A stretch of DNA of 61,191 nucleotides from a virus (IMGVR_UViG_3300033150_001094:1-61191); one strand, 5' to 3'. Positions 9,156 through 60,241 are shown, counted from the stretch's first letter. A program made the numbers and translations. The notes: a model not told the origin generated them from the sequence alone.

Positions 9156-9204
9156 TTTTCCCTCCTTTGTCTTTTCTTTGCCCCCTGCCACCATTTCTGA
9201 GCAA

Positions 9205-9386: not shown

Positions 9387-9406
9387 CGCGCGTGCGGCAA
9401 AGACAG

Positions 9407-9721: not shown

Positions 9722-9807
9722 GACCTTGACCTCCAACACGAGTGTGTCGGCCACCCACAGCCCCCTATGGGCTGTTGAACAGCAGCCGAGACAACATGTT
9801 GACGCAG

Positions 9808-9824
9808 GCAAGATCAGTGCGGGA
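9808..9824 (-). promoter_or_regulatory. conserved promoter-like motif, copy D
   Basis: TCCCGCACTGATCTTGC, 87 nt upstream of the ATG at 9721. Confidence 0.5.
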
Positions 9825-9828
9825 AACA

Positions 9829-10272: not shown

Positions 10273-10345
10273 GACCGAATCCCCTACATGCGTTGCAACC
10301 CACCGCGGGCTGCCGACCAGCAGCCAACTCACTATGCCCACGCAA

Positions 10346-10362
10346 ACAGGATTGGTGCGGGA
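10346..10362 (-). promoter_or_regulatory. conserved promoter-like motif, copy E
   Basis: TCCCGCACCAATCCTGT, 74 nt upstream of the ATG at 10272. Confidence 0.5.
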
Positions 10363-10630
10363 ATCCCAAACAACATGCCACCACAGACGCCCATGCCTAA
10401 AAATTGAGCACGCCCATGTTCGCCACACATCTGTGTGGCCACAACTGGCAACCACCCCACCGTTGCACCTAAACCCTTGCAGGCAAAGCACTTAGCCGCG
10501 GCCACGACCACGCCCCCTATCGGAAAGGTTGGACATTTGCGTACCCGTTGGTGGGGTGTTTTACCGGGATTTCGGATACCAATCCGCCAAAACGTGTCCA
10601 ACCCTGGGCCACTCACGGGGTGCCCTCGGA

Positions 10631-10679
10631 TTGCGTAATTTTTACGCAAAATGCCCCAAAAGGGTGGGAAAATTGCGTA
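10631..10679. promoter_or_regulatory. TTGCGTAA / TTACGCAA palindrome plus a third half-site
   Basis: TTGCGTAA-TTT-TTACGCAA occupies 10631-10649 and TTGCGTA occupies 10673-10679. The middle arm can pair with either outer arm. Confidence 0.45.
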
Positions 10680-10689
10680 TTTTTTGGGC

Positions 10690-10940
10690 AGATCCCCTGC
10701 GTCACCGCGTAGGGGGTGTGGTATTTGGGCGTTGTTAGGGCCGTTTGGGTGGTTTGGGCGTGGTTAGTTACAACGGGGTGGCGTGGTGAGTTATGGGTGA
10801 GTGGGGGTATGGGGGTATCGAGAGATACTGGGCGCGGGGCGTAGTTGGTGTGATTTGAGGGGTAGGGGCGTAGCGTATCTCGAATCGGGGCGTTTTCTGG
10901 GGCGTGGCAGGTGGGGGAAGCGTGAATGTGGCGCAAAAGA
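10690..10940 (-). repeat. G-depleted (on the minus strand) tract with reiterated ACGCCC / CACACC units
   Basis: The plus strand has only 5-6 C per 60 nt (hand count of lines 10741 and 10801). The minus strand repeats CACGCCCC, ACGCCCCG, CTACGCCCC, ACCACGCC and AACGCCCAAA. Confidence 0.6.
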
Positions 10941-10995
10941 TAGGGGGTAGCCGACATGAAGCCGACCACCCCCACGGGCACGAGGGGAGAACGTG

Positions 10996-11244
10996 TTATC
11001 TGAGGTCACCTGGGTCCACAGCTACTATGAGGGCGTCGCCGTGTGCCCATGCTTTGCGTATCTCATATCCAGGTGCCCTGCGTGTGGTTTGGCACTTCGG
11101 GCCTAGATACTGGTCGCGGACGATCAGGCGTGACTCGGGCAGGGGCGGGCCGTGACCAGAGGGCACCGCGACGTATCCGATCCCCCCGTTCCACCACGCC
11201 AGTGGCCCACGTTCAATCCAGTATATGTCAAAAGTTCTTTTCAT
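10996..11244 (-). CDS. hypothetical protein (82 aa)
   Basis: MKRTFDIYWIERGPLAWWNGGIGYVAVPSGHG... The start overlaps the upstream stop (ATGA). Confidence 0.5.
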   Translation of the reverse strand: MKRTFDIYWIERGPLAWWNGGIGYVAVPSGHGPPLPESRLIVRDQYLGPKCQTTRRAPGYEIRKAWAHGDALIVAVDPGDLR

Positions 11245-11368
11245 GCGTCACCCTCCGTGCTGGTGGAGATGTCGCTGGGTTCGTGCCCGTTCGGGGTTCG
11301 CCCGTTTCTGCCGGGCACCGGAGCGTGCCGTCTTCAAGAATGACAATCTCAAACGTGTCGTTGGCCAT
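11228..11368 (-). CDS. hypothetical small protein (46 aa)
   Basis: MANDTFEIVILEDGTLRCP... is the internal Met of ORF 11228..11743. Tentative. Confidence 0.3.
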   Translation of the reverse strand: MANDTFEIVILEDGTLRCPAETGEPRTGTNPATSPPARRVTHEKNF

Positions 11369-11372
11369 TGCG

Positions 11373-11678
11373 TTACCTCCTTGTGACGAGGAGCTTTCTA
11401 CCTTGGCGGCGAACCCTCCACCCGCGGGCACGGGCAGTTCGCTCAACCAAGCGTTCCGAATACCGTTGCTGAACCTGGCGGACGCGTTCGACGCAGTCCC
11501 GCTCAACTTCCGCGTTGTCACCGCGAATGGTGGCGATGACACGCCCACCGTCGATAAACTGAATGACACCCGCGACCACGCGGGTGTCCAGCCCCACATC
11601 CTTGGCGGCCGCCACGATTTCTCTGGCGTTTTTCTGCCGCCACTCAACCCGCACTGTGTTGATTTCCCAACACGGCAT
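11373..11678 (-). CDS. hypothetical protein (101 aa)
   Basis: MPCWEINTVRVEWRQKNAREIVAAAKDVGLD... The Arg-rich C-terminal tail may be out of frame. Confidence 0.45.
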   Translation of the reverse strand: MPCWEINTVRVEWRQKNAREIVAAAKDVGLDTRVVAGVIQFIDGGRVIATIRGDNAEVERDCVERVRQVQQRYSERLVERTARARGWRVRRQGRKLLVTRR

Positions 11679-11681
11679 GCT

Positions 11682-11924
11682 TCACCCCTTTCTCTTTTGC
11701 AGTGCCACGATTCTCGCCACGTACTCCAGCCAGAGCAGAGCACGTTTCACCCTGCGGCGCGGGATGGCCGCACCGTCCAACCACGAAGACAACAACAACC
11801 GCGCTTGAAACGTGCGCGGCCCCCGATCCGCGCAGCCGTGGGTGTAATCAAGAACTCGCGCAGCGCGCTCTTTGAGTTTCATGCGGGGGCAGCCGATGCA
11901 GCGCCACTCCACGGCCATTGCCAT
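11682..11924 (-). CDS. hypothetical protein (80 aa)
   Basis: Has a CIGC...HGC cluster and a basic helical C-terminus. Confidence 0.4.
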   Translation of the reverse strand: MAMAVEWRCIGCPRMKLKERAARVLDYTHGCADRGPRTFQARLLLSSWLDGAAIPRRRVKRALLWLEYVARIVALQKRKG

Positions 11925-11995
11925 TCTCCTTGTTTGGCCGAGCCCCCGCGCGACTCGGCACCCCGTGATTCCCGGCGCGGGCGGGATACTAACCG

Positions 11996-12832
11996 TCAGA
12001 CCTCGAAAGTCCGCCGCTCGGCAGGCAGGATTTCCACGGCGTTGCCGAGCACGCGGCCGAGTTCGTCACTCAAGCTTGAGAGCTGCGCTGGGCTCGTGCG
12101 CAGCGTTTCGGGTGCCACACCAGAGATGAGATTTCGGGCGCGGCGCACCAAGTCCGCCAACTCTTCGTCGTCCGTTACGTTGCGGACATCGAAGAGCCGG
12201 AGCCATTCGCGTAGCACATTGAATGTGCCACTAGTGATCCGCTCCGTTTCGCCACGCTTCACCTTGTCCAGGCGCGTCTTCAGCTCCGCGACGGCCTGAG
12301 CGAAACCGGCACGCAGCCCCTCGCGGATTTCCTCAACCACGCTGTCGAATTGCCGGCGCGATTCAGGATCGGGTGCCGGCGCGAACTGGTAGATCGACGC
12401 CAACACTTCAAACTTGTTGGCGTACTCTTCGGGGTCGGCGTAGTCCGACCAGTCAAACAAGTCGCCCAATCTGCGTTGGGCGTCCTGGCGGATATCATCC
12501 CACTCTGCCAACAACATTGAGCGGGCACGCTGAAAGTCCATGCGCGCCTGCTCCAACTCAGTATCCACAATCTCCCTGGCGTCCTGCGGAAACACGTGGA
12601 CAGCCGGCCCCAAGTTGTACACAGCCAGCTGCCCGATTCTCTTGCGGGCACGTCTGGCGGCCCCCCTAGCATACGCCACCGCACTAGCCCGCATCACCTC
12701 TTTCGATGCGTGCAGGCTGGTGCGATCCGCAGCGTTAGCATCGGCGGCCTCCTCTGCCGCCTTGCGGGCGGTCCGCCATTCAGCAGGCACACGGAACCGC
12801 AGATGAAGAACATTCATCGGTCGGTACATCAT
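11996..12832 (-). CDS. hypothetical helical protein (278 aa) downstream of the AAA+ gene
   Basis: Long acidic and helical ORF. No family assigned with confidence. Confidence 0.6.
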   Translation of the reverse strand: MMYRPMNVLHLRFRVPAEWRTARKAAEEAADANAADRTSLHASKEVMRASAVAYARGAARRARKRIGQLAVYNLGPAVHVFPQDAREIVDTELEQARMDFQRARSMLLAEWDDIRQDAQRRLGDLFDWSDYADPEEYANKFEVLASIYQFAPAPDPESRRQFDSVVEEIREGLRAGFAQAVAELKTRLDKVKRGETERITSGTFNVLREWLRLFDVRNVTDDEELADLVRRARNLISGVAPETLRTSPAQLSSLSDELGRVLGNAVEILPAERRTFEV

Positions 12833-12840
12833 ACGTCCTC

Positions 12841-13176
12841 CTACACATCGAGGGCACGCCCCGTGTTCGGCCGGGGCTTGCGATACAAACCAGGCACGGA
12901 CGCCGACAGGTAACGCCCGTCAGCCTCCGTGCGCCTACGCTCAATTCCCTCCGGATCGGCCACAGCCACCGGCGTAACGAATTTGGCGGCTGCTTCCAGC
13001 GAGAGTTCCAGCTCCCACGCCGTTTGACAGCACGCCTTGATCTCGGCGGCCGTCCACGACGCGTGCTTTGGCTTGGGCTGTTCGCCCAAGCCGTACTGGC
13101 TTGCCGTCGGACAGTTCGGAAATGACTGCCAACGCCTGCGCCACCCGCCCCTCGGTTTGACCGACCAACGATCCAT
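12841..13176 (-). CDS. AAA+ lid-like C-terminal fragment (different frame from 12941..13534)
   Basis: ...SWTAAEIKACCQTAWELELSLEAAAKFV... looks like the SGAEI-type lid helix. The N-terminal third of this ORF is out-of-frame overlap. Confidence 0.4.
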   Translation of the reverse strand: MDRWSVKPRGGWRRRWQSFPNCPTASQYGLGEQPKPKHASWTAAEIKACCQTAWELELSLEAAAKFVTPVAVADPEGIERRRTEADGRYLSASVPGLYRKPRPNTGRALDV

Positions 13177-13534
13177 AGAGCGCCGCTAGGTCAAACTGAA
13201 TCGTCAAGACGCCGGCACTCGCGCCAGCCGCCTTGCACACTAGCGACTTGCCCGTTCCGGGGTGCCCAAGAAAAAGCACCCCGGAACTTTCGGTATCCTG
13301 CATATAGCTAAGCAACCTGCCAAGCACCCGCTGAGAGGTGCCAGACGTGTCGGAAGTCCCGGACGTGGCGCCAGCCATGGCTTTTTCGATTTCGTCGATG
13401 AACACGACGGCCTTGTAACCCCCGCGGCCGGTCAGTTTTCGTTCCAGATACTCTTTGACGTTGGCAAGCCCCACCACGTCAGAGAGTGTCTCGCGGGGCT
13501 CGTAGATGGAAAGACCCGCGGTATCCTTCACCAT
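12941..13534 (-). CDS. AAA+ ATPase core with Walker B placed upstream of Walker A; C-terminus runs out of frame
   Basis: DVVGLANVKEYL, then KAVVFIDEIEKAMAG..SGTSQRVLGRLLSYMQD, then GVLFLGHPGTGKSLVCKAAG...LVGQTEGRVAQAL. The last ~55 aa are low-complexity. Confidence 0.6.
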   Translation of the reverse strand: MVKDTAGLSIYEPRETLSDVVGLANVKEYLERKLTGRGGYKAVVFIDEIEKAMAGATSGTSDTSGTSQRVLGRLLSYMQDTESSGVLFLGHPGTGKSLVCKAAGASAGVLTIQFDLAALYGSLVGQTEGRVAQALAVISELSDGKPVRLGRTAQAKARVVDGRRDQGVLSNGVGAGTLAGSSRQIRYAGGCGRSGGN

Positions 13535-14175
13535 CCGGGGTCAATCCCGTTCGTGGCCTGCCTCAGAGCAATTGCCGCGTGTTGCTCCGCGGCAAACGCA
13601 GGCAGGCCGCGCAGCAGCTCTACCGCCTGCGCGATCTGGTCGTCAGACGGAGACTGCCGCTGCACCTCCGCGCCGTTTTTGCGCGCCTCTTCGTAGGCGC
13701 GCCGCAAGGATTCGTCCAGTTCCCTGATCATCTGCCGGAGCTGTTGCCGCGTTGGTAACGGCAAAGGCGCCGTGACGACATCCGTGCTTTCCAGGCATGG
13801 GAGCGGCGCCCAGTAGGGCGTCGCAAAGATAATCATTACACCCGCGCGCTTTAGAGTGTCGCGCGCGGCCCAGAATGCTGTACAACCCGCCGCCCCAAGC
13901 TCTTCAAGTAGAGCCCGCGCGTGCGGAATCACAATGATCGTCCGGCGCGGCATCCTGGCCGCCAACGCCGGAAGAGCCGTCAGGTCACCGCCGAGTGCAT
14001 CGAACTCAGCGACAATCGACGCCCCCTCGTCCGTCACCGGCCTGGCGCCGGTGATTGGATCGTACATGACCACTGGCGCGTCGTCATAAATCGACGCGTC
14101 AGCAAGCGCGCCGGGATCGGGCGTCTCCACCGCCAACAGTGGCACGCCCGATTTCCTGTAGCTAACAACGTCCAT
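13528..14175 (-). CDS. degenerate AAA-like N-terminal domain protein
   Basis: GVPLLAVETPDPG (degenerate P-loop position), RRTIIVIPH, GVMIIFATP...LPLPTRQQLRQMI, and a lid-like LRGLPAFAAEQHAAIALRQA. Confidence 0.5.
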   Translation of the reverse strand: MDVVSYRKSGVPLLAVETPDPGALADASIYDDAPVVMYDPITGARPVTDEGASIVAEFDALGGDLTALPALAARMPRRTIIVIPHARALLEELGAAGCTAFWAARDTLKRAGVMIIFATPYWAPLPCLESTDVVTAPLPLPTRQQLRQMIRELDESLRRAYEEARKNGAEVQRQSPSDDQIAQAVELLRGLPAFAAEQHAAIALRQATNGIDPGW

Positions 14176-14250
14176 CCCCTATAAATAAAGCTGTCTGGCC
14201 GAAGTGGGGGGTGGCACTAGGCCAGACTATCCCCTACCCCTCAGCAGCAA

Positions 14251-14267
14251 GCAACTATGGTGTGGGA
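14251..14267 (-). promoter_or_regulatory. promoter-like motif facing the AAA+ operon
   Basis: The minus strand reads TCCCACACCATAGTTGC, 76 nt upstream of the ATG at 14175. It abuts the plus-oriented copy back to back. Confidence 0.45.
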
Positions 14268-14286
14268 TTCCACGCACAATCTCGCG
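14268..14286 (+). promoter_or_regulatory. promoter-like motif, plus-oriented
   Basis: TTCCACGCACAATCTCGCG. Confidence 0.4.
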
Positions 14287-14371
14287 TGGGGCGCCGGGCG
14301 GACCGAAGCACCCGATAGCTGCCGGCGGCCATCCACTCAACTGGCCGTAGAACACAACTGGCCCACACTAT

Positions 14372-14391
14372 TCCACCACACCAACCTTGCC
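14372..14391 (+). promoter_or_regulatory. promoter-like motif, plus-oriented, upstream of the beta-solenoid operon
   Basis: TCCACCACACCAACCTTGCC, 42-58 nt upstream of the candidate starts. Confidence 0.45.
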
Positions 14392-14448
14392 TCCTGCTGA
14401 TTGTTGCTGGCCCTAGAAGAAAGGAGTGAAACATGCTGGCCTATTGTT

Positions 14449-15321
14449 ATGTGCCGAGTGACGCCTAATCTTCCCGCTAAGGCTGAGCTGGTAGTTACCG
14501 CTGAGCCTGTCTGCGGCAAGAGCGTTATGCAAGACTTCATTGAGCGCATGTTGGCCCGTCCGGGCCACAACGTTGTGGCCGCTGGAAGCGTCGCTCGCCC
14601 GATTCTGGCCAACAGCACGGGCCAAGTGGCTTTCTCGTCTGAGATTTGTCCAGCTGTCGCGTACGGTGAAGATACTGTGGCAATCGCCACATATGACACA
14701 GCCGTGGCTCACGGTATCGGTGCGGTTGCTGTCTGCACAGCCGACAGGGAGGCGGCCATCGCCGTTGGCGTGCAATCCCGTGCCCACTACCACGGCAATG
14801 ACGGTTGCGCTATTGCCGACGGCACATTGTCTGTCGCAAGTGCGTGCGGCGAAGGCTGCTACGTTGGCACCACTGTGGGGATAGCCGTCTTGCACGGCTC
14901 ATGCGGTGTCGTCACTGGCAATGAGACAGTCGTTGTGGGCAATGACAACGTTGTGAATGTCGGCCGCAAAGGATTCATCAGAGGCGAAAGAAACAGTATT
15001 GCATTGATACCGGAATCTTCCGTGGAGGGAGTTGTTGCTGTTTACGGCTCACGCAACACAGTGATTTGTATGCGGCAAATCCGATTGCTTGTCGGGCCTA
15101 AAAGCACCGTATACTTGCAGAATCCTAGCATTGTGAAGGCCGGCAAGGAAAGCCTGGTCTATTTCACGCCCACGGATGGCATCTATTCGACGTTTCACGT
15201 CGGCGAAGACATTCCTGCTGACACATGGCTGGCGTTCAGCGTGGAGGATAATGTCGTGGAGGTCACGGAGACCGACCAGTTGGCAGAAATCCCATCAACA
15301 AGCAGCCAGGAGGAGTCGTGA
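14449..15321 (+). CDS. beta-solenoid repeat protein
   Basis: Reiterated short A/G/V repeats (AVAHGIGAVAVCTADREAAIAVGV..., GNETVVVGNDNVVNVG). The C-terminus is HVGEDIPADTWLAFSVEDNVVEVTE. The start is uncertain (TTG 14401 or ATG 14449/14527), and the strong SD at 14421 serves an out-of-frame ATG at 14433. Confidence 0.6.
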   Translation: MCRVTPNLPAKAELVVTAEPVCGKSVMQDFIERMLARPGHNVVAAGSVARPILANSTGQVAFSSEICPAVAYGEDTVAIATYDTAVAHGIGAVAVCTADREAAIAVGVQSRAHYHGNDGCAIADGTLSVASACGEGCYVGTTVGIAVLHGSCGVVTGNETVVVGNDNVVNVGRKGFIRGERNSIALIPESSVEGVVAVYGSRNTVICMRQIRLLVGPKSTVYLQNPSIVKAGKESLVYFTPTDGIYSTFHVGEDIPADTWLAFSVEDNVVEVTETDQLAEIPSTSSQEES

Positions 15322-15800
15322 TGAAACCACGCAAGGTTTACAAAGTGGTGTATTGCTTCGACGGCAAACGATGGTCGGCGGCCGTGCGGGCGCCGGGATG
15401 GATGCTTGAATATCACGTCAACAGACCAACAGTGCCGACAGTTCAGCAGTCCTGTCTGTACGCGTTCAAAGACTATCATTCGGCGCTGCTGTTTATGAGG
15501 GACTACGGCAGCTGTCGGCACGAACTGTGGGAGTGTGACGGGATTGTGGTGCCCGTGCCTCGCGTTGTGGTGGTTTCGCCGTACGCAGAAACCATGATGT
15601 GGCTGTGGCAGCGATACACGAAAACATGTGAACTGGGTGGCGGCTGCCGGCCGCCGCACGGCACGATCATGTGTAGCAGCATCACGCTGCGGCAACGGCG
15701 AGCAATCTATGGATTCAAGGATGGCAGGATAGACGTTTTTCGAGTCCAGCCCAACGGAACGCCATACGGCCAATCTCCCGAGGGCGTTAAGCCATGCTAA
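15321..15800 (+). CDS. VYKVV-family paralogue 1
   Basis: MKPRKVYKVV...LYAFKDYHSALLFM...ELWECDG...CRPPHGTIMCSSITL. SD is CAGGAGGAG, and the ATG overlaps the upstream TGA. Confidence 0.7.
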   Translation: MKPRKVYKVVYCFDGKRWSAAVRAPGWMLEYHVNRPTVPTVQQSCLYAFKDYHSALLFMRDYGSCRHELWECDGIVVPVPRVVVVSPYAETMMWLWQRYTKTCELGGGCRPPHGTIMCSSITLRQRRAIYGFKDGRIDVFRVQPNGTPYGQSPEGVKPC

Positions 15801-15838
15801 CGGAGCAGTCACGATGAAATCCCGCAAGGTTTACAAGG

Positions 15839-16294
15839 TTGGACGGGAAGCGTTGGTCGCTCTTCGCACGATCACCGAAGTGGATTGTTAAGTATCACGT
15901 CAACCGACCAACAGTACCGACAATTCAGTGGTCCTACCTCTACGCATTCAAGGACTACCATTCGGCACTGATGTTTATGCAAGAGTGCGGAACTTGCGAC
16001 TACGAATTATGGGAGTGCGACGGCGTAATAGCACCCGTGCCTCGCGTTCTCGTGATTACGCCGCATCCAGATGCTATGACCTGGTTGTGGCGACAATACA
16101 CGCATGTGTGTGAGTCGGGTGGCGGCTGCCGTCCGCCTCACGGCACAATCGTGTGTAGCAGCATCACGCTAAGGCGACGGCGGGCAGTCTATGGCCTGAA
16201 AGACAACATGCCGAACATTTTCCGTGTCCACCCTGACGGCACACCTTACGGACGGGTGCCGGAAGGCGTCGCGGTTGGTGAAATACCGTTCTAA
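15839..16294 (+). CDS. VYKVV-family paralogue 2, N-terminus detached by an 11-nt deletion
   Basis: The ATG at 15814 encodes MKSRKVYKV and then stops at 15891 in the wrong frame. The rest (DGKRWS...LYAFKDYHSALMFM...PHGTIVCSSITL) is in the +1 frame and only has a TTG start. Confidence 0.5.
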   Translation: MDGKRWSLFARSPKWIVKYHVNRPTVPTIQWSYLYAFKDYHSALMFMQECGTCDYELWECDGVIAPVPRVLVITPHPDAMTWLWRQYTHVCESGGGCRPPHGTIVCSSITLRRRRAVYGLKDNMPNIFRVHPDGTPYGRVPEGVAVGEIPF

Positions 16295-16320
16295 TACTCT
16301 AGCACGAGAAGGACACACAG

Positions 16321-16779
16321 GTGCGCACTATCGAAGTCTACAAAGTCGTAAGGAGGTCAGGCGACAAATTGCAGTCTGCCCTCATTTACGATCAAAGGTT
16401 CATTGTGGACTATGTGCCCGGCAAACCCACCAAACCGAAACATCCGGGGTCGCTCCTGTACGCTTTCAAAGACCTAAAATCTGCCGTGCGGTTCATGGGA
16501 AGTAACTGCTTGCCCGGCCACGAAGTCTGGGTGTGCCAAGCGATACCATCAAGGCGCAAGCCAAAAGCGGCGAACTGCACGGCTTTGTTCACGCGATTCT
16601 GGAATCTCTTCACGAGGCGCAAAGACATTCCTCGCCTCGTTCTTGGGCTCGTACCACCTGGGTGTATCCTTTGTTCCGAGATCACGCTCGTGAGGCGTGT
16701 CGCCAGATTTCAGTGCTTTGATGGCACAGACGACGAACCTATAGTCTTCGTCGACGAACACGGAAGGAACCCGAAATGA
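16321..16779 (+). CDS. VYKVV-family paralogue 3
   Basis: MRTIEVYKVV...LLYAFKDLKSAVRFM...EVWVCQA...PPGCILCSEITL, with a GTG start. Confidence 0.65.
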   Translation: MRTIEVYKVVRRSGDKLQSALIYDQRFIVDYVPGKPTKPKHPGSLLYAFKDLKSAVRFMGSNCLPGHEVWVCQAIPSRRKPKAANCTALFTRFWNLFTRRKDIPRLVLGLVPPGCILCSEITLVRRVARFQCFDGTDDEPIVFVDEHGRNPK

Positions 16780-17015
16780 GCGCACTTTCAATCAAAAACA
16801 TTGTCGAGCACGCAATGGCGCTCAAGCCAAAAGGCGTCAGTGCCTCTGATGTGCGGCGAGCAGCAGAAAGGGCTATCACCCAGCATCGCCGTCTTTATCT
16901 TGAAACCAGTTATGCCGGCGGTCCCGGACGATGTTACATTCCGTCTACGCCGGGCGAAGAAGCAGAATGCGAAAAACTTGTCCGCACCAGCACACGGTGG
17001 TATCGCTTGCTCTAG
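16776..17015 (+). CDS. hypothetical protein (79 aa)
   Basis: ATGA overlap with paralogue 3. Not related to the family. Confidence 0.5.
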   Translation: MSALSIKNIVEHAMALKPKGVSASDVRRAAERAITQHRRLYLETSYAGGPGRCYIPSTPGEEAECEKLVRTSTRWYRLL

Positions 17016-17032
17016 TGACGAGGGGGATTGCT

Positions 17033-17426
17033 ATGCAAAAGACTGTTTACAAAGTCGTTAGGCGCGCAGACGGTGGGCGACGTTTTTCGGTCGCTACGCA
17101 CGAACCAGAATGGAGGGTTGAATACTCGCCCCATTTTCCGGCTCGGCAAGGACGCCGTCTCGTTCGCCCTGTTCATGGGAGGCGTTGGGCTTGAGATATG
17201 GTTGGCGGAAGCCGACGTGGTAGAGCAGAAAGCGCGTGCCGGGTTTTTTCAGGGGTGGGATTACCTTTATCGCGTGTTCTGGGAGCACTATGACGAAAAG
17301 ATAGGCGAGCCCGCACCGCGAGGCACGGTGCTGTGCTCTACCATCACGATAAAAGAGCGCCTAGCAGAAACCGTGGAATCTTCCGATGGTCTGATCACTC
17401 TCCAGGAAATGGAGCCATCCCGTTAA
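17033..17426 (+). pseudogene. VYKVV-family paralogue 4, frame-broken (+1 needed near 17135-17140)
   Basis: MQKTVYKVVRRADGG...WRVEYSPHF is in one frame (stop at 17194). RLGKDAVSFALFMGG...EIWLAEAD...PRGTVLCSTITI is in the +1 frame. The junction is at CATTTTCCGG. Confidence 0.6.
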
Positions 17427-17443
17427 CCGCAAAGGTGAAGCCA

Positions 17444-17872
17444 ATGGCCACTGTTTACAAGGTAGTTTCACGAGATGAGAACGGGCAGTTGTGGTCTGCT
17501 GCCACGGTTGATGAGCGGTGGAAGGTGCGTTACCCAGTGGGGGCGCTCATCGTAGCTCGCCAACCCGATTCGATGCTTTACGCATTCCGTGACTACGACT
17601 CGGCCGCCCGCTTCATGCGGGCATGGTGTGGCAGAACCCACGAAATGTGGGAAGCGGAAGCCGACATTGACCAGTCTGTAGAGATGCCGTGGTGTGCCAC
17701 GGTAGGGTTCATGTTTGATCTGTTCTGGCAGAACATGTCCAAAGTCCCGAGTCGCTACGTCGCTCACGCGCCAGATGGGACGGTCCTCTGCAAAAGCATC
17801 ACCCTACGCAAGAAAGTTGGTGTGCTCGGTCTTGGGACGGTAATCCGCGTCAATGAGCAAGAGGAAAAATGA
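17444..17872 (+). CDS. VYKVV-family paralogue 5
   Basis: MATVYKVVSRDENG...MLYAFRDYDSAARFM...EMWEAEAD...PDGTVLCKSITL. Confidence 0.7.
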   Translation: MATVYKVVSRDENGQLWSAATVDERWKVRYPVGALIVARQPDSMLYAFRDYDSAARFMRAWCGRTHEMWEAEADIDQSVEMPWCATVGFMFDLFWQNMSKVPSRYVAHAPDGTVLCKSITLRKKVGVLGLGTVIRVNEQEEK

Positions 17873-18267
17873 GTACGCTGCATCCCGTTTTCAAGATTGT
17901 CAAAAAGCTCCCAGACGGGCGTCTTGTGTCGCCATGCGTAGGCGATCCAGAATGGCGAGTAGTTTACGTGCGAGACACGTTTGTGACCCCCCAAAAACCG
18001 AATAGCCATCTTTACGCGTTCGGGCGGTTTACGCTTGCAAGCGTGTACTTGCTTGGGCCACTACAGGCGCCTGACCTGGAATTGTGGGCTGGCGTGTCCG
18101 ACGCAGTTGGTATTCCGAGCAAGGAGGCTTGGCCGTGCGACCCACGTTTCTTTGAGACATTTTGGTACGGTGATCGTCGCCGCGTGGTGACTGTTGAACC
18201 GTGGCCCGGCACGCTCGTTTGCAAGAGGATAAAATTGCAATTCAAGATTCCCTTGGAGAGAAAGTAA
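17869..18267 (+). CDS. VYKVV-family paralogue 6 (divergent)
   Basis: MSTLHPVFKIVKKLPDG...HLYAFGRFTLASVYL...ELWAGVSD...PGTLVCKRIKL, with an ATGA overlap. Confidence 0.6.
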   Translation: MSTLHPVFKIVKKLPDGRLVSPCVGDPEWRVVYVRDTFVTPQKPNSHLYAFGRFTLASVYLLGPLQAPDLELWAGVSDAVGIPSKEAWPCDPRFFETFWYGDRRRVVTVEPWPGTLVCKRIKLQFKIPLERK

Positions 18268-18602
18268 TGAAACTCCCGCAAGAAAACGAAAAAGTGCCGT
18301 CTTACCCCGTGCCCGGCTACCTTGCCACGCTCTCGCCGGCCACCGCGAATGACGTGAAGGGCATCAATTTCCCACCGCTGGTGCCAGAGTGCGAGTTTTG
18401 TGGCGATCCCACCGACGGAATGGTGATTGCGATAGGCAAGATCACGGGGACGCCCAGTCCTGTATTCATGCGAATCAGGATATGCCCGGCGTGCTTGGCA
18501 AAGAAACACGGCACAAACGCCATAATCAAGGCAATGGCGTCAATAGACGAAACCGCCGCCGTGCTCAAGGCAGTGGTGGCCACGGTTGCACCTACCAATT
18601 AA
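18267..18602 (+). CDS. hypothetical zinc-ribbon protein (111 aa)
   Basis: MKLPQENEK... with CEFCG...CPAC. TAATG overlap with paralogue 6. Confidence 0.55.
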   Translation: MKLPQENEKVPSYPVPGYLATLSPATANDVKGINFPPLVPECEFCGDPTDGMVIAIGKITGTPSPVFMRIRICPACLAKKHGTNAIIKAMASIDETAAVLKAVVATVAPTN

Positions 18603-18838: not shown

Positions 18839-21800
18839 CTAATAGGCCCCCGATTGCAGTTCTTGAATCATACGAGAAATTTGCTGTGTCGGGCTGAGCC
18901 GTTCCGGCGGCGTGTTGAACATCTCTCGAAGCTGCGCCTCTATCAGCTGGTCCACCATTTTGCTCTTGCCGCGAGGCTGGGCGTACCCACGCCGCACTCT
19001 CTCCTTCTGGATTGCGTCCATCAGGGCGTCCAATGCCCGGATATCCTGTTGGGCGGCCTGCCCTGCCGCCGTGGCCTTCCACGTCTCTGGCACGTAATAG
19101 TACATGCCGCTGCGGGCCGCTCTCGCGTTTTCCAGGATGCGTTGTAAGGCGTCTCGTGCGTCGTACAGCTTTTGCATCTCCAGATCATAGTACCCCGTCT
19201 TGATACCTGTCACCAGGTCCACGACCGGCCCTACGCGAAGTTTCAAGTCACCTATATCCTGGACCATCCGCGAAATCCCCTGTCCAGGATCAATGCCGGC
19301 GATTTCCAGCATGGTTCGCAAAGTGCTGGCCAGCCGGGCGAGCGGTGTCATCGAAATCATGGCGTCCACCGTGGGCTGCCCGTAAAGACCGCTGGTGTAC
19401 TCAAGCGGCCTGCCAGTGTACGGTTCGATCCCAAACAACAACCTCGTGGTGCCTGGAATGAGGGGGTGCATACGTGAGATCATTTTCAGGCTGGTCCGCA
19501 TTGCTGCCATCGGAACGCCACCCGCTGGCGTGGGCAAGAAGAACATGCCCACGTCTTCCATCGGCAGCCCCCACTGCCGGATCACCATTTGCCGCCCTGG
19601 TTCGCCCCCCAAGTGCTCGGCAATTCCCTCTGGCACTGGCACAGCAAACATTTCCCTCATCCACTCGGGCAGTTCTGGCTGTTGAGCCTGTAGTCTGTGC
19701 ATCGCCCGTGTAACCTGAGCTGGGCCACTACGCCAGTCCAGCAGCAACCTGGGCAGCATATACCCCAGGTTCTGCCTCAGCCACGAGTAGAACATGAAGA
19801 TGTTGCCGTACCGGCGTTCCAGTGGACTTAGGCGACCGTAGTTGTATTGCACCTGCCAAACCAATTCGACTGCCTGGGCGGGCGTAAATCCTTTGCGACG
19901 TGCAGCAATATACATTGCCCCCCGCATGGTCGATTCGACAACTCGGTACGCATGTTCGCCTGCGGCTGCCCACGCCTTAGCGATAGTGGCCGCACCACTC
20001 AGCGCCGGCACCTTGCTGACCACGCTTTTCTGTACGTCCTGTCGCGCGCGAGTAAGCAATCCCCTCGGAAGCAATCTCTGCGGGATCGTGTAATACTGTG
20101 AAGCCGCTTGTGTGGCACGGCTGGCCCCCTGGATCGCACGGTAAAACTCCATCTCGTTGGCATAGGGTGGCCTCGTGCCTTTGCTCAAATGGCTTGTGAA
20201 CTCGCCCAGCGCCTTGAAGAACTCTCTGGGGGTGTACGGTGCATCGGCCATCAGGGCCATAACCGTAGCTGACGTGGTGTTCCTCACATGGAAGGAAGGA
20301 AACGGCTGCGTCCACATGAACCTTGTGACTTCCATCACCTTCCCTATCGCCTTCTCCAACCCGTACTGTACCGAACGGTCCTCGGAGAAGTCCAATACCT
20401 TTTGCATCCGCGTAATCATCTCCTTCGGTACGTACAGGCGCTTCTCCAGCCCCCTTGGCACCGAAGTGACGGGTTCTACGGTACGCCACCAGTCGGTCGT
20501 TAGCTCCCTCAGAAAGCTGCCTCCCATTGAGGAACCGCCGAACCGTAGCCGACGCATCCCTTCATCGAGCCGTACCCACTCGTCACGCCCGATCCCCCAC
20601 GTTTGCATGATGCGGCGTTTCAAACCCACAGCCTTGCGCACCCGACGCTTTATCCGCCCACTGGCCGCAGGGTGTGCCGAGAAGAAACGTTCCACGTCAA
20701 CCTCGCTGGCTTCCTGCGGATTGAATGGCAAAATGGTCTTGGCCAAAGCACGCCTAACGCCGAAAACCAGCCCCAACTTCGCCGCGCCCAAGTGGAACAT
20801 TTCTCGGTACGATTCCATCACCTCGGGACGAAAGAGCACGCCGGGTGAGTGGTGTTCCTTCAAGTAGTCAATGGCGACGCCAACCGCGCCGCCGCGGCTG
20901 AGGTATTCAGCAAGTGACGAGACGCCATACAACCGATTTGGTGTCAGCCTGCGAAATGACGCCCAGTCTTCTGGCGTGATACCCCACGCCTTGCCTTCCG
21001 CGGGCACTTCGGCACTTCTGCTTTGCAAAAGACGCCAGAAGTTCTTTCTCTCTTGTTCATGGTTGAACGCCGCAAGATGCCGCACCAACTCGTCACGTCC
21101 AGCCAATCGTTTGGTCAAAAACCTCTTGATGTACCAGTCAGGCAGCGGCGCCGACAACAACCACACATTCCGTTGCCATGCTGGCGCGGGCGATCTGAGC
21201 CATTCAACCAGATATCTGTCGAACGCGTAGAGTGATCTCTTGCCTTCCTGCGTCAGACGGCGACGGCGAATGTCAATGGCCAGATTGTCGTAGGCTTCTT
21301 CGCCAACGCGATACAAGAAATACTTGTCAACGGCGTCCTTCTGGAGCCGTTCTGGCAATCGGGGAATCGGCCCTGCCTCCTCTAACGGTGACGCAGGAAA
21401 CCGGACCTCTGTTGGGTTGACGGCGGGCAGCCGGATAAGTTCCGTGTTCTCGCCAACTGTCCGGCCAAGGTAGTATGTGCCCTCATCATCCATCCCCATC
21501 ACGTAACCAGAGATGCCTTTTTCGCCCACATCCAAGGTTACGGCGGTGCCTGGCGTCCACCACGTTCTCTCGCCGTTCGCCTCAAAGAGCCAGCCGGCTC
21601 GCGTGATCTCTGGGTAGGCGTCTTTTACAGCCGGGCGAGTAAGCACGGGGTCACGAGCAATCTGATTCACCGCCACGGTCGGCAACCGGATTTTCTGGCC
21701 GCGCATCACCGGCCAGAGGGTTGGCGCGTAGCGTTCCTCAAGCACCTTGAATCGTGGCATGTATCGGCTCAGGAACGCATCCAAAAGCTCAGGCACCTTG

Positions 21801-23554
21801 ATGCCTGAATTGCTCATAGCTTGGCGCAGGGCGGCCGTGGGCTCACGCAAGGTGTTGTTCAGGTAATTCTCTACCCTCCACAACAAGTCAGCCACGTCGC
21901 CAGCATGTTCCGTCGTTTCCGGCACCCCCATGAGAAATTCGCCCATCTTGCGGGCAAACTTCATGGTGTCTTCACTTCCTCGCTTGTACGTTTCGCCAAC
22001 CGTGCGTACTAGCTCGTCGTATGTCTTGACCAGCTCAGGATGGTTGGCTGCCTGGGCACGTGCTCGGAGCCCTTCGTAGGTGCCCCTTAGACTACCGAGC
22101 AATTCCGACGCGACGTATTGAGTGTCCAGCAGCAAATAGTTGAGCCGCATCATTGCGTCGGCAGCGTACTGCCGGGCAGCCGACTCCATTGGGTTGGCCG
22201 CCGAGCCAGTGGTCCAGTGGAAGAAGCTCAACAGCCCGGACGTGACACGGTTATTTACCAGCCATTCGGCCAACTGTTGTGCTCGCTCACCAGTTCCCAA
22301 CTCAACCAACGCCTCGTGTTGCGGCACAATGGTCGTCCAGGGCCACGCAGTCCTGAAAGCCAACAGGGCACGGCCTCTTTCACCAGTCCACTCTTCAACT
22401 TTGCCCATCGGGGAAACAGGTGCCAGTTCCGCCGCCTCTCTTGTAGCAAGTCCTGGTTGACGCCCAATGTTTCGCAACAGCGATTCAACCTGCGTCCGCA
22501 CCCCGCCACCGATTGATTCCAGCAGAAACTGGTGCGGTTTGGACGCAAACTCTGATTGAGCGACCTGAGTCGCCACCTGGCTCAAGTCACCATTGACGTG
22601 GGGCTTTTCGAGCGTTCTCAAGTACCTGTTCACGTGGGCCGCCAGCTCAGCTACGTCGCTGCCGCCAAAGTCGCTCATGCCGGTCACATCGGCGATCCCG
22701 ACCTTCTTGAGTGCTTCCCGGCCCAGCCTCGCTGCATCATCCCACTGCTCGGCCGCAATCTTGCCAAGCATCTCCTTGCCAACAGACTCGAACGCCCTAG
22801 CGTCTGCCAGTGCTACTGTCAGCGCACCTGCGGCACGGGCCGTCCGTCCGCTGATCCCCCCCAACTTTTCCGCGCCTTGCAAGATTCTCAGTGCCCGGTT
22901 AGACGGCCCAGCAATCACCGGCAACCCCGGCGGAACGGCGAATATCTCGACGCCCAGCCCCAAGATGTCGTATATCGCATCGTAGGGGTCCGCCAGCACG
23001 TGGAATCCGGGCTTGTTTTTTGGTGCGCCCCACTTTTCCAACACTTCACGGCCCGTGATGTGACGCTCGGGCACCTTCCACGGGAAAGTTGCCTCCCAGA
23101 ATCCCTTCAAATAGCTCTCCGAGAACGGCAGCAACACCATCAAGTGCTCTGGCTCGCGGGCCAAGATTCCACGGAAGGCCGCAAACGGTTTGTCGATCAC
23201 GTTGCCGATCACATACAACGCGCTCACCGCAGAACGGCCGACCGCCGCCAAAGCTCTTGACAGGTGTTCGTCTTCCCTGGCGGCACCCGCCAACGGCGAG
23301 TTTTGCTTCCGCAACAGCTCAGTCAGTTCCGCGTGAGGCTGAACCAGCGGCTCATAGCCCCCCAGTTGCATGGCCTGTTCGTAAATGGTGGGGGCTTTGT
23401 TGCTCGCCAGGTATGGCGTGAAGTCAGCGTATGGCGCCATGTCGGGGACTCGCGGCGCAATGGCGCGAAAGATTTGCTCTTTCTGCTCACGCGGCAAGAG
23501 CGCAAGCACCTGGTCATTGCCCAGCAAGTCTTGCAAGTCAAAAGGTAGTGTCAT
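18839..23554 (-). CDS. 1571-aa virion protein candidate (internal/ejection-type by position)
   Basis: This is the longest ORF and the last gene of the virion block. It is preceded by small membrane proteins and A/G/Q/M-rich proteins. I saw no polymerase, transglycosylase or peptidase motif. Confidence 0.7.
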   Translation of the reverse strand: MTLPFDLQDLLGNDQVLALLPREQKEQIFRAIAPRVPDMAPYADFTPYLASNKAPTIYEQAMQLGGYEPLVQPHAELTELLRKQNSPLAGAAREDEHLSRALAAVGRSAVSALYVIGNVIDKPFAAFRGILAREPEHLMVLLPFSESYLKGFWEATFPWKVPERHITGREVLEKWGAPKNKPGFHVLADPYDAIYDILGLGVEIFAVPPGLPVIAGPSNRALRILQGAEKLGGISGRTARAAGALTVALADARAFESVGKEMLGKIAAEQWDDAARLGREALKKVGIADVTGMSDFGGSDVAELAAHVNRYLRTLEKPHVNGDLSQVATQVAQSEFASKPHQFLLESIGGGVRTQVESLLRNIGRQPGLATREAAELAPVSPMGKVEEWTGERGRALLAFRTAWPWTTIVPQHEALVELGTGERAQQLAEWLVNNRVTSGLLSFFHWTTGSAANPMESAARQYAADAMMRLNYLLLDTQYVASELLGSLRGTYEGLRARAQAANHPELVKTYDELVRTVGETYKRGSEDTMKFARKMGEFLMGVPETTEHAGDVADLLWRVENYLNNTLREPTAALRQAMSNSGIKVPELLDAFLSRYMPRFKVLEERYAPTLWPVMRGQKIRLPTVAVNQIARDPVLTRPAVKDAYPEITRAGWLFEANGERTWWTPGTAVTLDVGEKGISGYVMGMDDEGTYYLGRTVGENTELIRLPAVNPTEVRFPASPLEEAGPIPRLPERLQKDAVDKYFLYRVGEEAYDNLAIDIRRRRLTQEGKRSLYAFDRYLVEWLRSPAPAWQRNVWLLSAPLPDWYIKRFLTKRLAGRDELVRHLAAFNHEQERKNFWRLLQSRSAEVPAEGKAWGITPEDWASFRRLTPNRLYGVSSLAEYLSRGGAVGVAIDYLKEHHSPGVLFRPEVMESYREMFHLGAAKLGLVFGVRRALAKTILPFNPQEASEVDVERFFSAHPAASGRIKRRVRKAVGLKRRIMQTWGIGRDEWVRLDEGMRRLRFGGSSMGGSFLRELTTDWWRTVEPVTSVPRGLEKRLYVPKEMITRMQKVLDFSEDRSVQYGLEKAIGKVMEVTRFMWTQPFPSFHVRNTTSATVMALMADAPYTPREFFKALGEFTSHLSKGTRPPYANEMEFYRAIQGASRATQAASQYYTIPQRLLPRGLLTRARQDVQKSVVSKVPALSGAATIAKAWAAAGEHAYRVVESTMRGAMYIAARRKGFTPAQAVELVWQVQYNYGRLSPLERRYGNIFMFYSWLRQNLGYMLPRLLLDWRSGPAQVTRAMHRLQAQQPELPEWMREMFAVPVPEGIAEHLGGEPGRQMVIRQWGLPMEDVGMFFLPTPAGGVPMAAMRTSLKMISRMHPLIPGTTRLLFGIEPYTGRPLEYTSGLYGQPTVDAMISMTPLARLASTLRTMLEIAGIDPGQGISRMVQDIGDLKLRVGPVVDLVTGIKTGYYDLEMQKLYDARDALQRILENARAARSGMYYYVPETWKATAAGQAAQQDIRALDALMDAIQKERVRRGYAQPRGKSKMVDQLIEAQLREMFNTPPERLSPTQQISRMIQELQSGAY

Positions 23555-59242: not shown

Positions 59243-59244
59243 CC

Positions 59245-59782: not shown

Positions 59783-60241
59783 ATGAAACGCGAGATCGTT
59801 TACAAGGTGGTGCGCGTAGAGGGCGACAAACGCTTGTCAGCCGTCACAAATGGTGTCTGGCAAGTCGAATACAAGCCAGGCAAAGTCACGCGGCCGCGGA
59901 AGCGCACGAAACTACTGGCCTTCAAGTCACGCGAAGCTGCCCTGGATTTCACTCGCTTCATCGCCAAGATCGAGAGAGATGATGTGTTTGAAATCTGGAA
60001 ATGCGAGGCGCGCGATTGCGAAGCCGTGTACAATCTGCCGGGCTGCGGACGCGCAAACGACTTCATAGATTTCTGGCGAAAACTCAGTCGCTGCGAGTTC
60101 TTTTCAGTACGCCCAAGAACGAAAGTGTGCCTTTTTATGGCACCGCCTGGGACTGTTGCCTGTTCTGCACTCAAACTACGGGTGAGGGTCGCTAGATACA
60201 CCAATCGAAAAAAGTCGCAAACGGAAACGGCCAATGATTAG
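59783..60241 (+). CDS. VYKVV-family paralogue 7 (dispersed copy)
   Basis: MKREIVYKVVRVEGDKRLSAV...LLAFKSREAALDF...EIWKCEA...PPGTVACSALKL. Confidence 0.65.
   Translation: MKREIVYKVVRVEGDKRLSAVTNGVWQVEYKPGKVTRPRKRTKLLAFKSREAALDFTRFIAKIERDDVFEIWKCEARDCEAVYNLPGCGRANDFIDFWRKLSRCEFFSVRPRTKVCLFMAPPGTVACSALKLRVRVARYTNRKKSQTETAND

Follow-up and report, generated by a model that had tools for sequence, protein, structure and literature searches.

Diverged tandem paralogues of an unannotated small-protein family in a phage genome and their recurrent expansion in other phages

Analysis of a 61,191-nt stretch of viral DNA (hereafter the window) revealed seven homologous genes which are diverged paralogues of a large unannotated family of small proteins (~120-160 aa), recurrently expanded in other phages, absent from the annotation libraries searched and, in the youngest window pair, under purifying selection. 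An exhaustive HMM search of 1.84 billion proteins retrieved 5,293 cluster representatives at E<=1e-3 (1,230 at E<=1e-10); the family is common in viral metagenomes, and the contexts sampled are mostly phage-like contigs. The initial annotation, made from the sequence alone, had left the family unassigned, and so it stays after comparison with Pfam, NCBIfam, PHROGs, PADLOC and PDB sequences. Neither the seven window copies nor 133 members matched Pfam at E<=1, the HMMs of PHROGs, NCBIfam and PADLOC gave nothing but isolated matches near the reporting threshold, and a PDB profile search returned nothing significant. Similarly, tblastn with three queries against 50,697 cultured phages yielded no match, and a scan of 185,579 prokaryotic genomes for subfamily motifs yielded no relative. 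We tentatively favour, with a probability of about 0.4, the interpretation that these proteins form a diversifying family of accessory effectors, possibly acting in counter-defence.

The window derives from a phage, as had been assumed: genes for a large terminase, a portal protein and a helicase are present, and its ends overlap by 114 nt. A profile HMM of 133 family members, searched against all stop-to-stop ORFs of the window, matched seven loci and no others at E<=10 (Table 1), with E-values from 1e-10 to 1e-39 (1e-24 to 1e-39 for the intact copies). All seven loci of the initial annotation are thereby recovered, and the four motifs that it listed are all found in the copies; corrections concern the start of C2, given there as 15839, and C4 (17033-17426), which is split between two frames in the window. 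Together, the copies occupy 3,101 nt, or 5.07% of the window, matching the earlier estimate of ~5%. Stop and start codons of neighbouring array genes overlap or abut, and AG-rich, Shine-Dalgarno-like stretches precede several of the starts (most clearly those of C1, C2 and C4). The 79-aa ORF within the array matched neither the family HMM nor Pfam, and the 111-aa ORF had no Pfam match. In sibling contigs the Gly/Ala/Val-rich repeat protein is 329 aa long, whereas a 101-nt gap at 14467 shortens it in the window; searching Pfam, PDB sequences and cultured phages with it gave no match.

Table 1. Family copies and adjoining genes in the window.
Feature	Coordinates	Strand	Remarks
Gly/Ala/Val-rich repeat protein	14401..15321	+	First gene of the array's plus-strand block; context, not a family member
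C1, 159 aa, intact	15321..15800	+	HMM E 3.9e-30; AGGAGG 5' of start
C2, real gene 163 aa, frame-broken in window	15814..16294	+	ATG 15814, own GGAG ribosome-binding site
C3, 152 aa, intact, GTG start	16321..16779	+	HMM E 2.5e-36; identical to P0013
Unrelated 79-aa ORF interrupting the array	16776..17015	+	Start overlaps C3 stop codon
C4, real gene 144 aa, frame-broken in window	17033..17426	+	Intact protein = P0014
C5, 142 aa, intact	17444..17872	+	HMM E 8.4e-37; source of first structure model
C6, 132 aa, most diverged copy	17869..18267	+	HMM E 3.8e-26; start overlaps C5 stop by 4 nt
C7, 152 aa, dispersed	59783..60241	+	HMM E 4.8e-39; end of recombination/replication block
111-aa ORF with Cys pairs	18267..18602	+	Last gene of block; start overlaps C6 stop; context

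Two of the seven window copies carry frame breaks that the initial annotation had missed. C2 loses its frame at an 11-nt gap (15838/15839), which is why an ORF finder returns only 15839-16294, and the TTG start at 15839 is an artefact. In C4, the length of which is not a multiple of three in the window, a 41-nt gap at 17146/17147 leaves two frames (HMM E 2.5e-10 and 3.8e-14 for the halves) and removes the LYAF motif. Both genes are intact in two sibling contigs of 61,690 bp and 25,502 bp (C2 at L002 109-600 and L003 10382-10873), which show 0 mismatches to the window over 20 kb and 12 kb. The sole differences are indels of 11-134 nt, without microhomology at their junctions, which are scattered over the compared regions and break other genes too; in one sibling, a 115-nt gap falls within C1 (P0005). 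Since the C2 and C4 gaps are absent from two siblings that are identical apart from such indels, they are probably assembly or scaffolding gaps and not marks of pseudogenes. That the array as a whole was produced by misassembly or consists of functionless, decaying pseudogenes is highly improbable: C2 and C4 are indeed broken in the window and C1 in one sibling, but these breaks belong to the zero-mismatch indel pattern that runs through every region compared and also hits other genes, at least one other contig carries each broken copy in intact form, the dN/dS ratio is low (see below), and the motifs are kept in thousands of homologues. Duplication of the copies by the assembly itself, which the initial annotation had named as a possible pitfall, was rejected as well, the copies being too diverged and dS between C1 and C2 being ~1; with identities of 21-67%, they are therefore not collapsed repeats.

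At the protein level, C1 and C2 are 66.7% identical, somewhat less than the three-quarters initially judged by eye, and the remaining pairs are, as stated then, much more diverged (21-35%; 21-27% for C6 against the other copies). Gene dosage, one of the purposes originally suggested for the array, is unlikely at identities as low as 21-35%. The dN/dS calculation proposed at the same time, run on C1 and C2, gave 0.21 at a dS of ~1; this youngest pair is under purifying selection, and its differences are concentrated in loops and the tail. C7 belongs to a separate subfamily; its closest relatives, P0006 (74%), P0007 (54%) and P0017 (42%), all lie on other contigs.

The multiplication of the family had initially been called unusual. 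It is not confined to this genome, as multi-copy sets recur in unrelated phage contigs: eight tandem copies in L009, eight domains in four two-domain genes in L018, and five, four, two and two copies in L004, L013, L010 and L026, respectively. Among the 15 contexts that span 4 kb or more, seven are multi-copy, and the others hold one copy in the fetched stretch; expansion is therefore not obligatory. Proteins longer than 185 aa account for 18 of the 153 collected in the searches, most of them with two matched stretches. Of 19 copies, 18 have their nearest neighbour within their own genome, and identity is 29-34% within genomes versus 22.8% between them (permutation p ~2e-4), a likeness part of which could be inflated by shared composition (GC 33% to 58%). 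Diversification, also proposed initially, thus gains from the independent multi-copy sets, from the clustering of copies by genome and from the dN/dS of C1 and C2, and fits the data better than chance.

The conserved core (residues numbered as in C5) starts with strand 1, V-Y-K6-V-V, followed by S18 and Y30, then by L-x-A-F48 and a helix with A54 and F57, a strand E-x-W69-x-[AC]-E-A, F-W95 and the C-terminal P-x-G112-T113-x-x-C116-x-x-I-x-L. Four polar residues are near-invariant (K6 99%, S18 98%, Y30 100%, T113 92%), and C116 is also conserved. The best-conserved acidic residues are E67 (62%) and E72 (58%), none exceeding 62%, and no conserved His or Arg was found among family members. Four regions vary between copies, namely the strand 2-3 loops, the stretch after helix 1, a stretch of 40-50 residues between strands 5 and 6, and the C-terminal tail. 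Each protein is predicted to be a single soluble, usually basic alpha/beta domain: the pI is 9.4-10.0 in five of the seven copies and near-neutral in C4 (6.4) and C5 (6.7), with a family median of 9.1. Such a high pI would suit nucleic-acid binding equally well.

Structure prediction, which the initial annotation had recommended, gave a confidently predicted fold and weak matches to solved structures. The AlphaFold2 model of C5 reached a pLDDT of 87.7 and a pTM of 0.84, and a second, independent model, of the compact member P0138, 89.0 and 0.83; pLDDT is lower in the variable stretch of both models. The best Foldseek matches of the C5 model in the PDB are A1 chains of cholera toxin and heat-labile enterotoxin, a RES toxin and TreX, and those of the P0138 model are BC2332 (2AUA, E 0.16), then Arr (2HW2; probability 0.90, TM 0.48/0.41 over 126 columns) and KptA/Tpt1. 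The top matches of both models are therefore proteins of the ADP-ribosyltransferase (ART) fold, none of them significant (E 0.16-2, TM <=0.48, rmsd ~6-10 A); BC2332 and Tpt1 both belong to the ADP-ribosylation superfamily of SCOP. Sequence comparison gave no counterpart, as the family profile aligned to Arr with an hhalign probability of 0.2%, and the Pfam ART families matched none of 133 members at E<=1. The catalytic triads of ARTs, H-Y-E/D or R-S-E, are not conserved in the family. Tad1, Tad2, Acb2 and AcrIF11 were neither among the 50 Foldseek PDB matches listed per model nor found in the PDB sequence search. As a lead only, these models suggest that the scaffold probably derives from a minimal ART fold of the Arr, BC2332 and Tpt1 type that has lost the canonical triad.

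Genes related to NAD+ or ADP-ribose adjoin a family gene in three of the 15 contexts: one copy directly follows an ART-PolyVal gene in L004, two copies are coupled to a WGR-PARP gene in L010-L012, and the eight domains of L018 lie just upstream of an Nmnat-Nampt-NUDIX gene set, with NADAR and Tad2-like genes within the same 20 kb. A Nampt and Nmnat pair constitutes the counter-defence pathway NARP2. No such neighbours were found in the window phage or among 92 neighbouring proteins at six further loci. Elsewhere, one member lies five genes upstream of rIIA-rIIB (L005), two tRNA-like elements directly follow C7, and members in L004, L005 and L018 sit among genes for RNA repair and ligation (Hen1, Pnkp, RlaP, SpoU).

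From these three contexts and the weak ART-fold resemblance we conjecture a role in anti-defence or host takeover. The genes of the array would form a translationally coupled operon for cytoplasmic accessory effectors, in which the conserved core may serve as a scaffold while each paralogue engages its own host target or ligand, probably to counter defences or to take over the host; the arrays could have formed as tandem duplicates that then diverged under conflict between host and phage. As the canonical triad has been lost, we infer that binding, possibly of NAD+/ADP-ribose-type ligands or host proteins, is favoured over catalysis, much as we infer the effector role and the ART ancestry.

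Catalysis would return if K6, S18, Y30 and T113 formed a putative NAD+ site of active, non-canonical ARTs or other NAD+-using enzymes; target specificity would then reside in the variable stretch between strands 5 and 6, so that each paralogue would modify a different host protein or nucleic acid, like Alt, ModA and ModB of T4. The near-invariance of these polar residues, the ART-fold proteins heading the PDB matches of two independent models and the adjoining ART-PolyVal and PARP genes all speak for such enzymes, as do the aromatic-Lys pair of strand 1 and the ensuing conserved Ser, which recall the R...S of the R-S-E class, and the precedent of AcrIF11, a phage ART of similar size that is active with one triad residue. 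Nevertheless, we consider active enzymes unlikely: a Lys replaces the usual His or Arg, no catalytic acidic residue is conserved (E67 62%, E72 58%), and the Pfam, hhalign and Foldseek comparisons with ARTs described above were all non-significant.

Slightly less likely still is a role as nucleic-acid binders, most plausibly of RNA or tRNA, which would make the proteins phage regulators or RNA-handling factors and not anti-defence effectors. The basic pI of most copies, the tRNA-like elements downstream of C7, the RNA-repair neighbours and the presence of Tpt1/KptA, an RNA-acting ART-fold enzyme, among the structural matches are compatible with this role, but large phages commonly carry RNA-repair genes in their accessory regions, lineage-specific expansion is unusual in regulators, C4 and C5 are near-neutral, and no known nucleic-acid-binding fold was recovered. 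Finally, the paralogues might co-assemble into a hetero-oligomer, with several subunits serving one function instead of one target per copy. Overlapping, translationally coupled genes and the frequent two-domain fusions (18 of 153 collected proteins, four such genes in L018) would favour co-assembly; we nonetheless regard it as improbable, given that phages carry from one to eight copies, that C7 is unlinked and of another subfamily, and that no structural-module neighbours recur.

Among known systems, the effector family that we favour finds its best solved-structure matches, through the compact member P0138, in Arr, BC2332 and KptA/Tpt1. Both Arr and AcrIF11 are ARTs of very small size whose sequences show no obvious similarity to those of other ARTs, and Arr (~16 kDa) resembles the family in size. 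Reading the sequences side by side, Arr-type proteins and the family share the same order of elements (an aromatic-then-basic strand, a strand and helix, a hydrophobic strand, a long loop and a final strand), although the family contains an additional hairpin between its strands 1 and 4, and the places of the H19-Y49-D84 triad of Arr are taken by K6, A47 and a variable loop. AcrIF11, an anti-CRISPR ADP-ribosyltransferase of phages and plasmids which serves counter-defence and went unannotated until its structure was solved, is likewise an accessory protein of phages and about as small as the family members. It has an ART fold with a strongly degenerate triad, of which one H-Y-E residue is left; unlike the family, it keeps its His and a catalytic Asp, and it is not known to form tandem arrays.

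Among viral models, Foldseek matched the family to DUF7666 (PF24703; probability 1.0, E 2e-2, TM 0.44-0.45) and to rIIB proteins (probability 0.60-0.94); matches at probabilities of 0.94-1.0 had E-values of 2e-2 to 6e-2 and TM of 0.43-0.45. The T4 rIIB C-terminus itself matches DUF7666 weakly (E 0.17), and a non-significant local hhalign alignment between the rIIB C-terminal domain and the family places YKVV, the conserved Ser, a strand-helix unit and the next strand in the same order; the hhalign probability against rIIB C-terminal sequences was 0.2-1.1%. The Pfam model of DUF7666 matched neither the seven copies nor the 133 members at E<=1, and its signature C-x-x-G-L-H is replaced in the family by L-x-A-F.

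One phage, T4, carries paralogous ARTs directed at different host targets early in infection, and modA and modB are neighbours in its genome. Alt, ModA and ModB have no sequence match to the family and differ from it in being canonical R-S-E enzymes of ~200 aa or more, in three copies versus six to eight. In viral gene accordions, a counter-defence gene is amplified in tandem and then diverges, an established way for viruses to adapt, as for poxvirus K3L and T4 dmd-tifA. Those amplifications are recent and near-identical, whereas in the present array C1 and C2 alone are moderately recent and the other copies are anciently diverged.

The seven genes listed in the initial annotation (C1 to C7) are all present, as seen in the ORF listing and by direct reading of positions 15250-18330 and 58500-61191. 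When an HMM of 133 homologues was run against every stop-to-stop ORF of the window, exactly seven loci were recovered and none other at E<=10, the intact copies scoring between E 1e-24 and 1e-39. The copies add up to 3,101 nt, or 5.07% of the window, in agreement with the claimed share of about 5%, and a comparison of their sequences shows that the four proposed shared motifs are real. C1 and C2 had been judged by eye to be about three-quarters identical; their measured protein identity is lower, at 66.7%, and every other pair of copies is 21-35% identical. The dN/dS analysis proposed at that stage proved usable for C1/C2 alone (dN 0.216, dS 1.03, dN/dS 0.21), synonymous sites being saturated in all other pairs. 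Differences between C1 and C2 cluster in residues 16-30, 61-105 and the tail, and residues 31-60 and 106-120 are 80-93% identical. Because the copies are too diverged, we rejected both gene dosage, one of the roles first suggested for the array, and duplication during assembly, which had been raised as a possible trivial explanation.

Location of the family copies and associated features (window coordinates unless another locus is named)
Feature	Location	Strand	Remarks
Array block	14401-18602	+	Short, flanked by two minus-strand blocks; order: 329-aa Gly/Ala/Val-rich repeat protein, C1, C2, C3, unrelated 79-aa ORF, C4, C5, C6, 111-aa Cys-containing protein
Gly/Ala/Val-rich short-repeat protein	14401-15321	+	First gene of the array operon; intact (329 aa) at 9015-10004 of L003, a sibling-contig stretch
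C1	15321-15800	+	
C2	15814-16294	+	True start is the ATG at 15814, with its own GGAG in front; frame shifted by 11-nt gap at 15838/15839
C3	16321-16779	+	
C4	17033-17426	+	41-nt gap at 17146/17147 leaves the copy in two frames, LYAF motif lost
C5	17444-17872	+	
C6	17869-18267	+	
1571-aa ORF	18839-23554	-	Convergent with array
C7	59783-60241		Dispersed copy
tRNA-like elements	60241-60384, 60830-60971	+	Two paralogues, about 140 nt each, directly downstream of C7
Terminal direct repeat	1-114, 61078-61191		Exact, 114 nt
Segments missing relative to siblings	9335, 10010, 10293, 11320, 13098, 13539, 14176, 14467, 15839, 17147, 24836, 26316, 26626, ~60478		
L009 (IMG/VR contig, 71.7 kb)	8553-11851		Eight tandem copies
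L018 (metagenomic T4-like contig)	609-1055, 11125-14416, 16703-16930		NADAR, Nmnat-like, Nampt, NUDIX and Tad2-like genes; four two-domain family genes (eight domains)
L004 (other locus)			Five copies
L013 (other locus)			Four copies, three in tandem
L010, L026 (other loci)			Two copies each

The window derives from a phage encoding a large terminase, a portal protein, an SNF2-type helicase, ERF, YqaJ, RuvC and two DNA methylases. The large terminase is 21-24% identical to its best cultured matches (four phages: Pelagibacter, Vibrio and Xanthomonas phages), and 20 kb of the window, run by megablast against cultured phages, gave no match; this phage is very distant from all that has been cultured. 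Its GC content is 57% and canonical tRNA genes are absent. Since the window carries a terminal direct repeat and is matched in rotated form by a 61,690-bp sibling contig, the genome is probably complete, its assembly being circular or permuted.

Within the array block, Shine-Dalgarno-like AG-rich stretches lie 5' of several starts, most plainly at C1, C2 and C4, and several stop and start codons overlap, which points to translational coupling. Promoter and terminator scans around the array and C7 loci returned nothing above shuffled expectation. The first gene codes for a repeat protein that may form a beta-solenoid and has no match in Pfam, PDB sequences or cultured phages. The 1571-aa ORF has no PHROGs or precomputed Pfam match and no relative in IMG/VR; its place at the end of a minus-strand block that continues to the genes for portal and terminase suggests a possible role in the virion, in ejection or in the tail. 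C7 lies 41 kb from the array, at the end of a recombination/replication block. The two tRNA-like elements beside it, which are also found in the sibling contig, share their 5' end (GCCTCGGCGGCGTGGTGGGAACACGC) and 3' end (ACCGGGTTCGAATCCCGGCCGGGGC) and differ in their middles (~75 nt). Their ends can pair as a 7-bp acceptor stem, a D-arm and a T-arm, and the predicted folds of both are multi-branched and cloverleaf-like (z-scores -2.8 and -1.6). ARAGORN called no tRNA in either element, and Rfam retrieved only mascRNA, itself tRNA-like, at a sub-threshold score.

Two siblings of the window, contigs of 61,690 bp and 25,502 bp that come from other JGI samples, also have this array; in them C2 is 163 aa and C4 144 aa long. 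Compared with the window, the siblings show zero mismatches over 20 kb and 12 kb, the sole differences being indels of 11-134 nt, which lack junction microhomology, are spread across all compared regions and break other genes too; a 497-aa AAA ATPase, for example, is split across 12841-14175 by window gaps. Gaps also occur on the sibling side, one of 115 nt within C1 (in one sibling) and one of 51 nt at window position 24670. Indels without mismatches argue against decay and for assembly or scaffolding gaps, which are also the most likely origin of the breaks in C2 and C4; pseudogenisation of these two copies was rejected, their gaps being one case of that same pattern. That the array as a whole is an artefact or a set of pseudogenes seems scarcely credible. 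As the gaps look like a scaffolding or assembly artefact, ORF calls in the window are unreliable.

The family remains unassigned, as it was when first noticed. No recurrent match to Pfam or PHROGs was detected among the seven copies, 10 distant homologues and 133 members, a scan of 14 members against NCBIfam and PADLOC returned nothing, and a PDB sequence-profile search gave nothing significant. The sources of the cluster members offer no name beyond 'hypothetical protein', and literature searches on DUF7666, on rIIB in connection with the ADP-ribosyltransferase (ART) fold, on paralogous phage arrays and on ART-like anti-defence proteins yielded nothing on the family. An exhaustive HMM search of 1.84 billion cluster representatives retrieved 5,293 at E<=1e-3 and 1,230 at E<=1e-10; this is the informative search, and word-indexed protein searches with family profiles, at 12 matches each, under-report the family. 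Most members are 115-165 aa long, and about one eighth of the proteins collected are longer two-domain forms. No member was found by tblastn of the family consensus and two individual members (P0129 and P0021) against 50,697 cultured phage records, no relative by scanning 185,579 prokaryotic species genomes (GTDB) for a subfamily motif, and nothing by an IMG/VR search with C5. The retrieved contexts are phage-like, with GC contents from 33% to 59%; one short contig has bacterial-looking neighbours. With more than 5,000 clusters at 50% identity and neither a Pfam, PHROGs, NCBIfam or PADLOC entry nor a solved structure, the family constitutes viral dark matter of considerable size.

This family expands habitually. 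The initial annotation had suggested a survey of copy number in related phages; HMM scans of the retrieved loci covered 15 contexts of at least 4 kb. Seven of these are multi-copy, and the remainder hold one copy within the fetched stretch. The L009 contig, of which 19 kb were fetched, has no similarity to the window (tblastx at 1e-5) other than the family itself. One of its copies (10216-10648) is frame-split, and an upstream ORF (6672-6965) is a remnant made up of two N-terminal half-domains, both degenerate. The split copy and the remnant suggest that arrays undergo turnover, although the frame-split copy could alternatively be an assembly error. Mean identity within three genomes is 31.4%, 34.0% and 28.6%, compared with 22.8% between genomes (label-permutation test for clustering by genome, p about 2e-4), a similarity that could be inflated by shared composition. 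For 18 of 19 copies the nearest neighbour is a genome-mate, the exception being C7, whose closest relatives (P0006, 74%; P0007, 54%; P0017, 42%) all come from other contigs. In a comparison with the best 150 representatives, the outside matches of C3, C4 and C6 are about equal to their paralogues, and the duplications are therefore old, C1/C2 excepted. Genes engaged in host-virus conflict typically show expansion of this kind, which has taken place repeatedly and independently, reaching 4-8 copies or domains in phages that are unrelated.

Residue conservation was counted across 133 members in C5 numbering. Y30 is fully conserved (100%), followed by K6 (99%), S18, F48 and W95 (98% each), G112 (97%), A54 (96%), T113 (92%) and C116 (91%); E67 and E72 reach 62% and 58%, and the 40-50 residues between strands 5 and 6 are poorly conserved. 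AlphaFold2 models of C5 (14-sequence alignment; pLDDT 87.7, pTM 0.84) and of the compact, 116-aa member P0138 (22 sequences; pLDDT 89.0, pTM 0.83) have the same order of elements. A long strand comes first and is followed by a hairpin, then by a strand and a helix; after these come another long strand, a variable region that includes a short helix, and finally a long strand at the C-terminal end. Confidence drops solely in the variable region.

Neither model has a significant match among solved structures. The leading PDB matches of C5 are the A1 chains of cholera toxin and of heat-labile enterotoxin, a RES toxin and TreX, an Rhs toxin (E 0.4-2, TM about 0.38), and those of P0138 are BC2332 (E 0.16), the rifampin ART Arr (probability 0.90, TM 0.48/0.41, 126 columns) and KptA/Tpt1; though none is significant, the two sets are mutually consistent. 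BC2332 and Tpt1 are entries of the SCOP ADP-ribosylation superfamily, and BC2332 has template matches to the diphtheria toxin active site. Other PDB matches, such as ribosomal proteins (rmsd about 13 A), were dismissed as noise. Among predicted viral structures, the best matches are uncharacterised phage proteins (best E 6.9e-5), followed by DUF7666, rIIB and giant-virus 'ankyrin'/DUF4116 proteins (probability up to 1.0, TM 0.4-0.5); the C-terminus of T4 rIIB itself matches DUF7666 weakly (E 0.17). By hhalign, neither rIIB C-termini nor Arr aligned significantly with the family, the local rIIB alignment preserving the order of the YKVV motif, the conserved Ser, the strand-helix unit and the next strand. 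Since structural matches are weak and profile comparisons not significant, descent from an ART-like protein and a relationship to DUF7666 and to the C-terminus of rIIB are leads only.

In three of the 15 contexts the family is found beside NAD+/ADP-ribose genes. A copy lies directly 3' of an ART-PolyVal gene in L004, two copies overlap the start of a WGR-PARP gene in L010-L012, and the eight domains of L018 lie just upstream of genes for Nmnat-like, Nampt and NUDIX proteins, NADAR and Tad2-like genes being found within the same 20-kb stretch. L018 thus resembles a counter-defence island dense in NAD+/ADP-ribose genes; a Nampt and Nmnat pair makes up NARP2, a counter-defence pathway that about 1.1% of phages are reported to carry. 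The window phage has no NAD+/ADP-ribose gene near the array or C7, and there was none among 92 neighbours from six other loci that were scanned against Pfam, these being ordinary phage or temperate-phage genes (integrases, DnaB, portal, methylase). Further neighbours include rIIA/rIIB, RNA-repair and ligase genes and unannotated small ORFs. Given so small a sample, and since accessory genes tend to cluster in any case, the association is at most suggestive.

Our preferred, still tentative reading, with a probability of about 0.42, is that the family consists of a conserved scaffold bearing variable loops, the gene for which would have been duplicated and then diversified. Each paralogue would have its own host target or ligand, with counter-defence or host takeover as the most plausible purpose, and the scaffold is probably a minimal ART fold in degenerate form, acting today by binding. 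A bolder version, which we consider rather unlikely, sees here a new and very large clade of minimal ART-fold proteins, marked by a conserved but non-canonical set of residues (Y-K...S...Y...G-T-x-x-C) and arrayed as a modular counter-defence toolkit, so far encountered in metagenomic sequence only and absent from the 50,697 phage records, in which every member would have a host immune component or NAD+-derived signal of its own to ADP-ribosylate or sequester. That the proteins are active, non-canonical ARTs is unlikely: AcrIF11 and Arr illustrate how deviant small ARTs can become, yet the canonical triads H-Y-E/D and R-S-E are both absent from the family.

The proteins are hydrophilic, with a median pI of 9.1 (9.4-10.0 in five window copies, near 6.5 in C4 and C5), and this basic character, the tRNA-like neighbours of C7 and the RNA-repair contexts would suit nucleic-acid or RNA binders, a role we also regard as unlikely. 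The two-domain fusions hint at an obligate hetero-oligomer of the paralogues, which is more doubtful still. A true ART or NAD+ link would give phage counter-defence a scaffold new to its repertoire and supply many natural variants for the mapping of target specificity; should the link fail, the family would still lend itself to functional screening, being well defined, with models of good confidence and conserved residues that are clear targets for mutation. The family is new in that it is in no library queried and has no characterised member; in kind it is already known, as a lineage-specifically expanded phage accessory family, possibly built on an ART-like fold.
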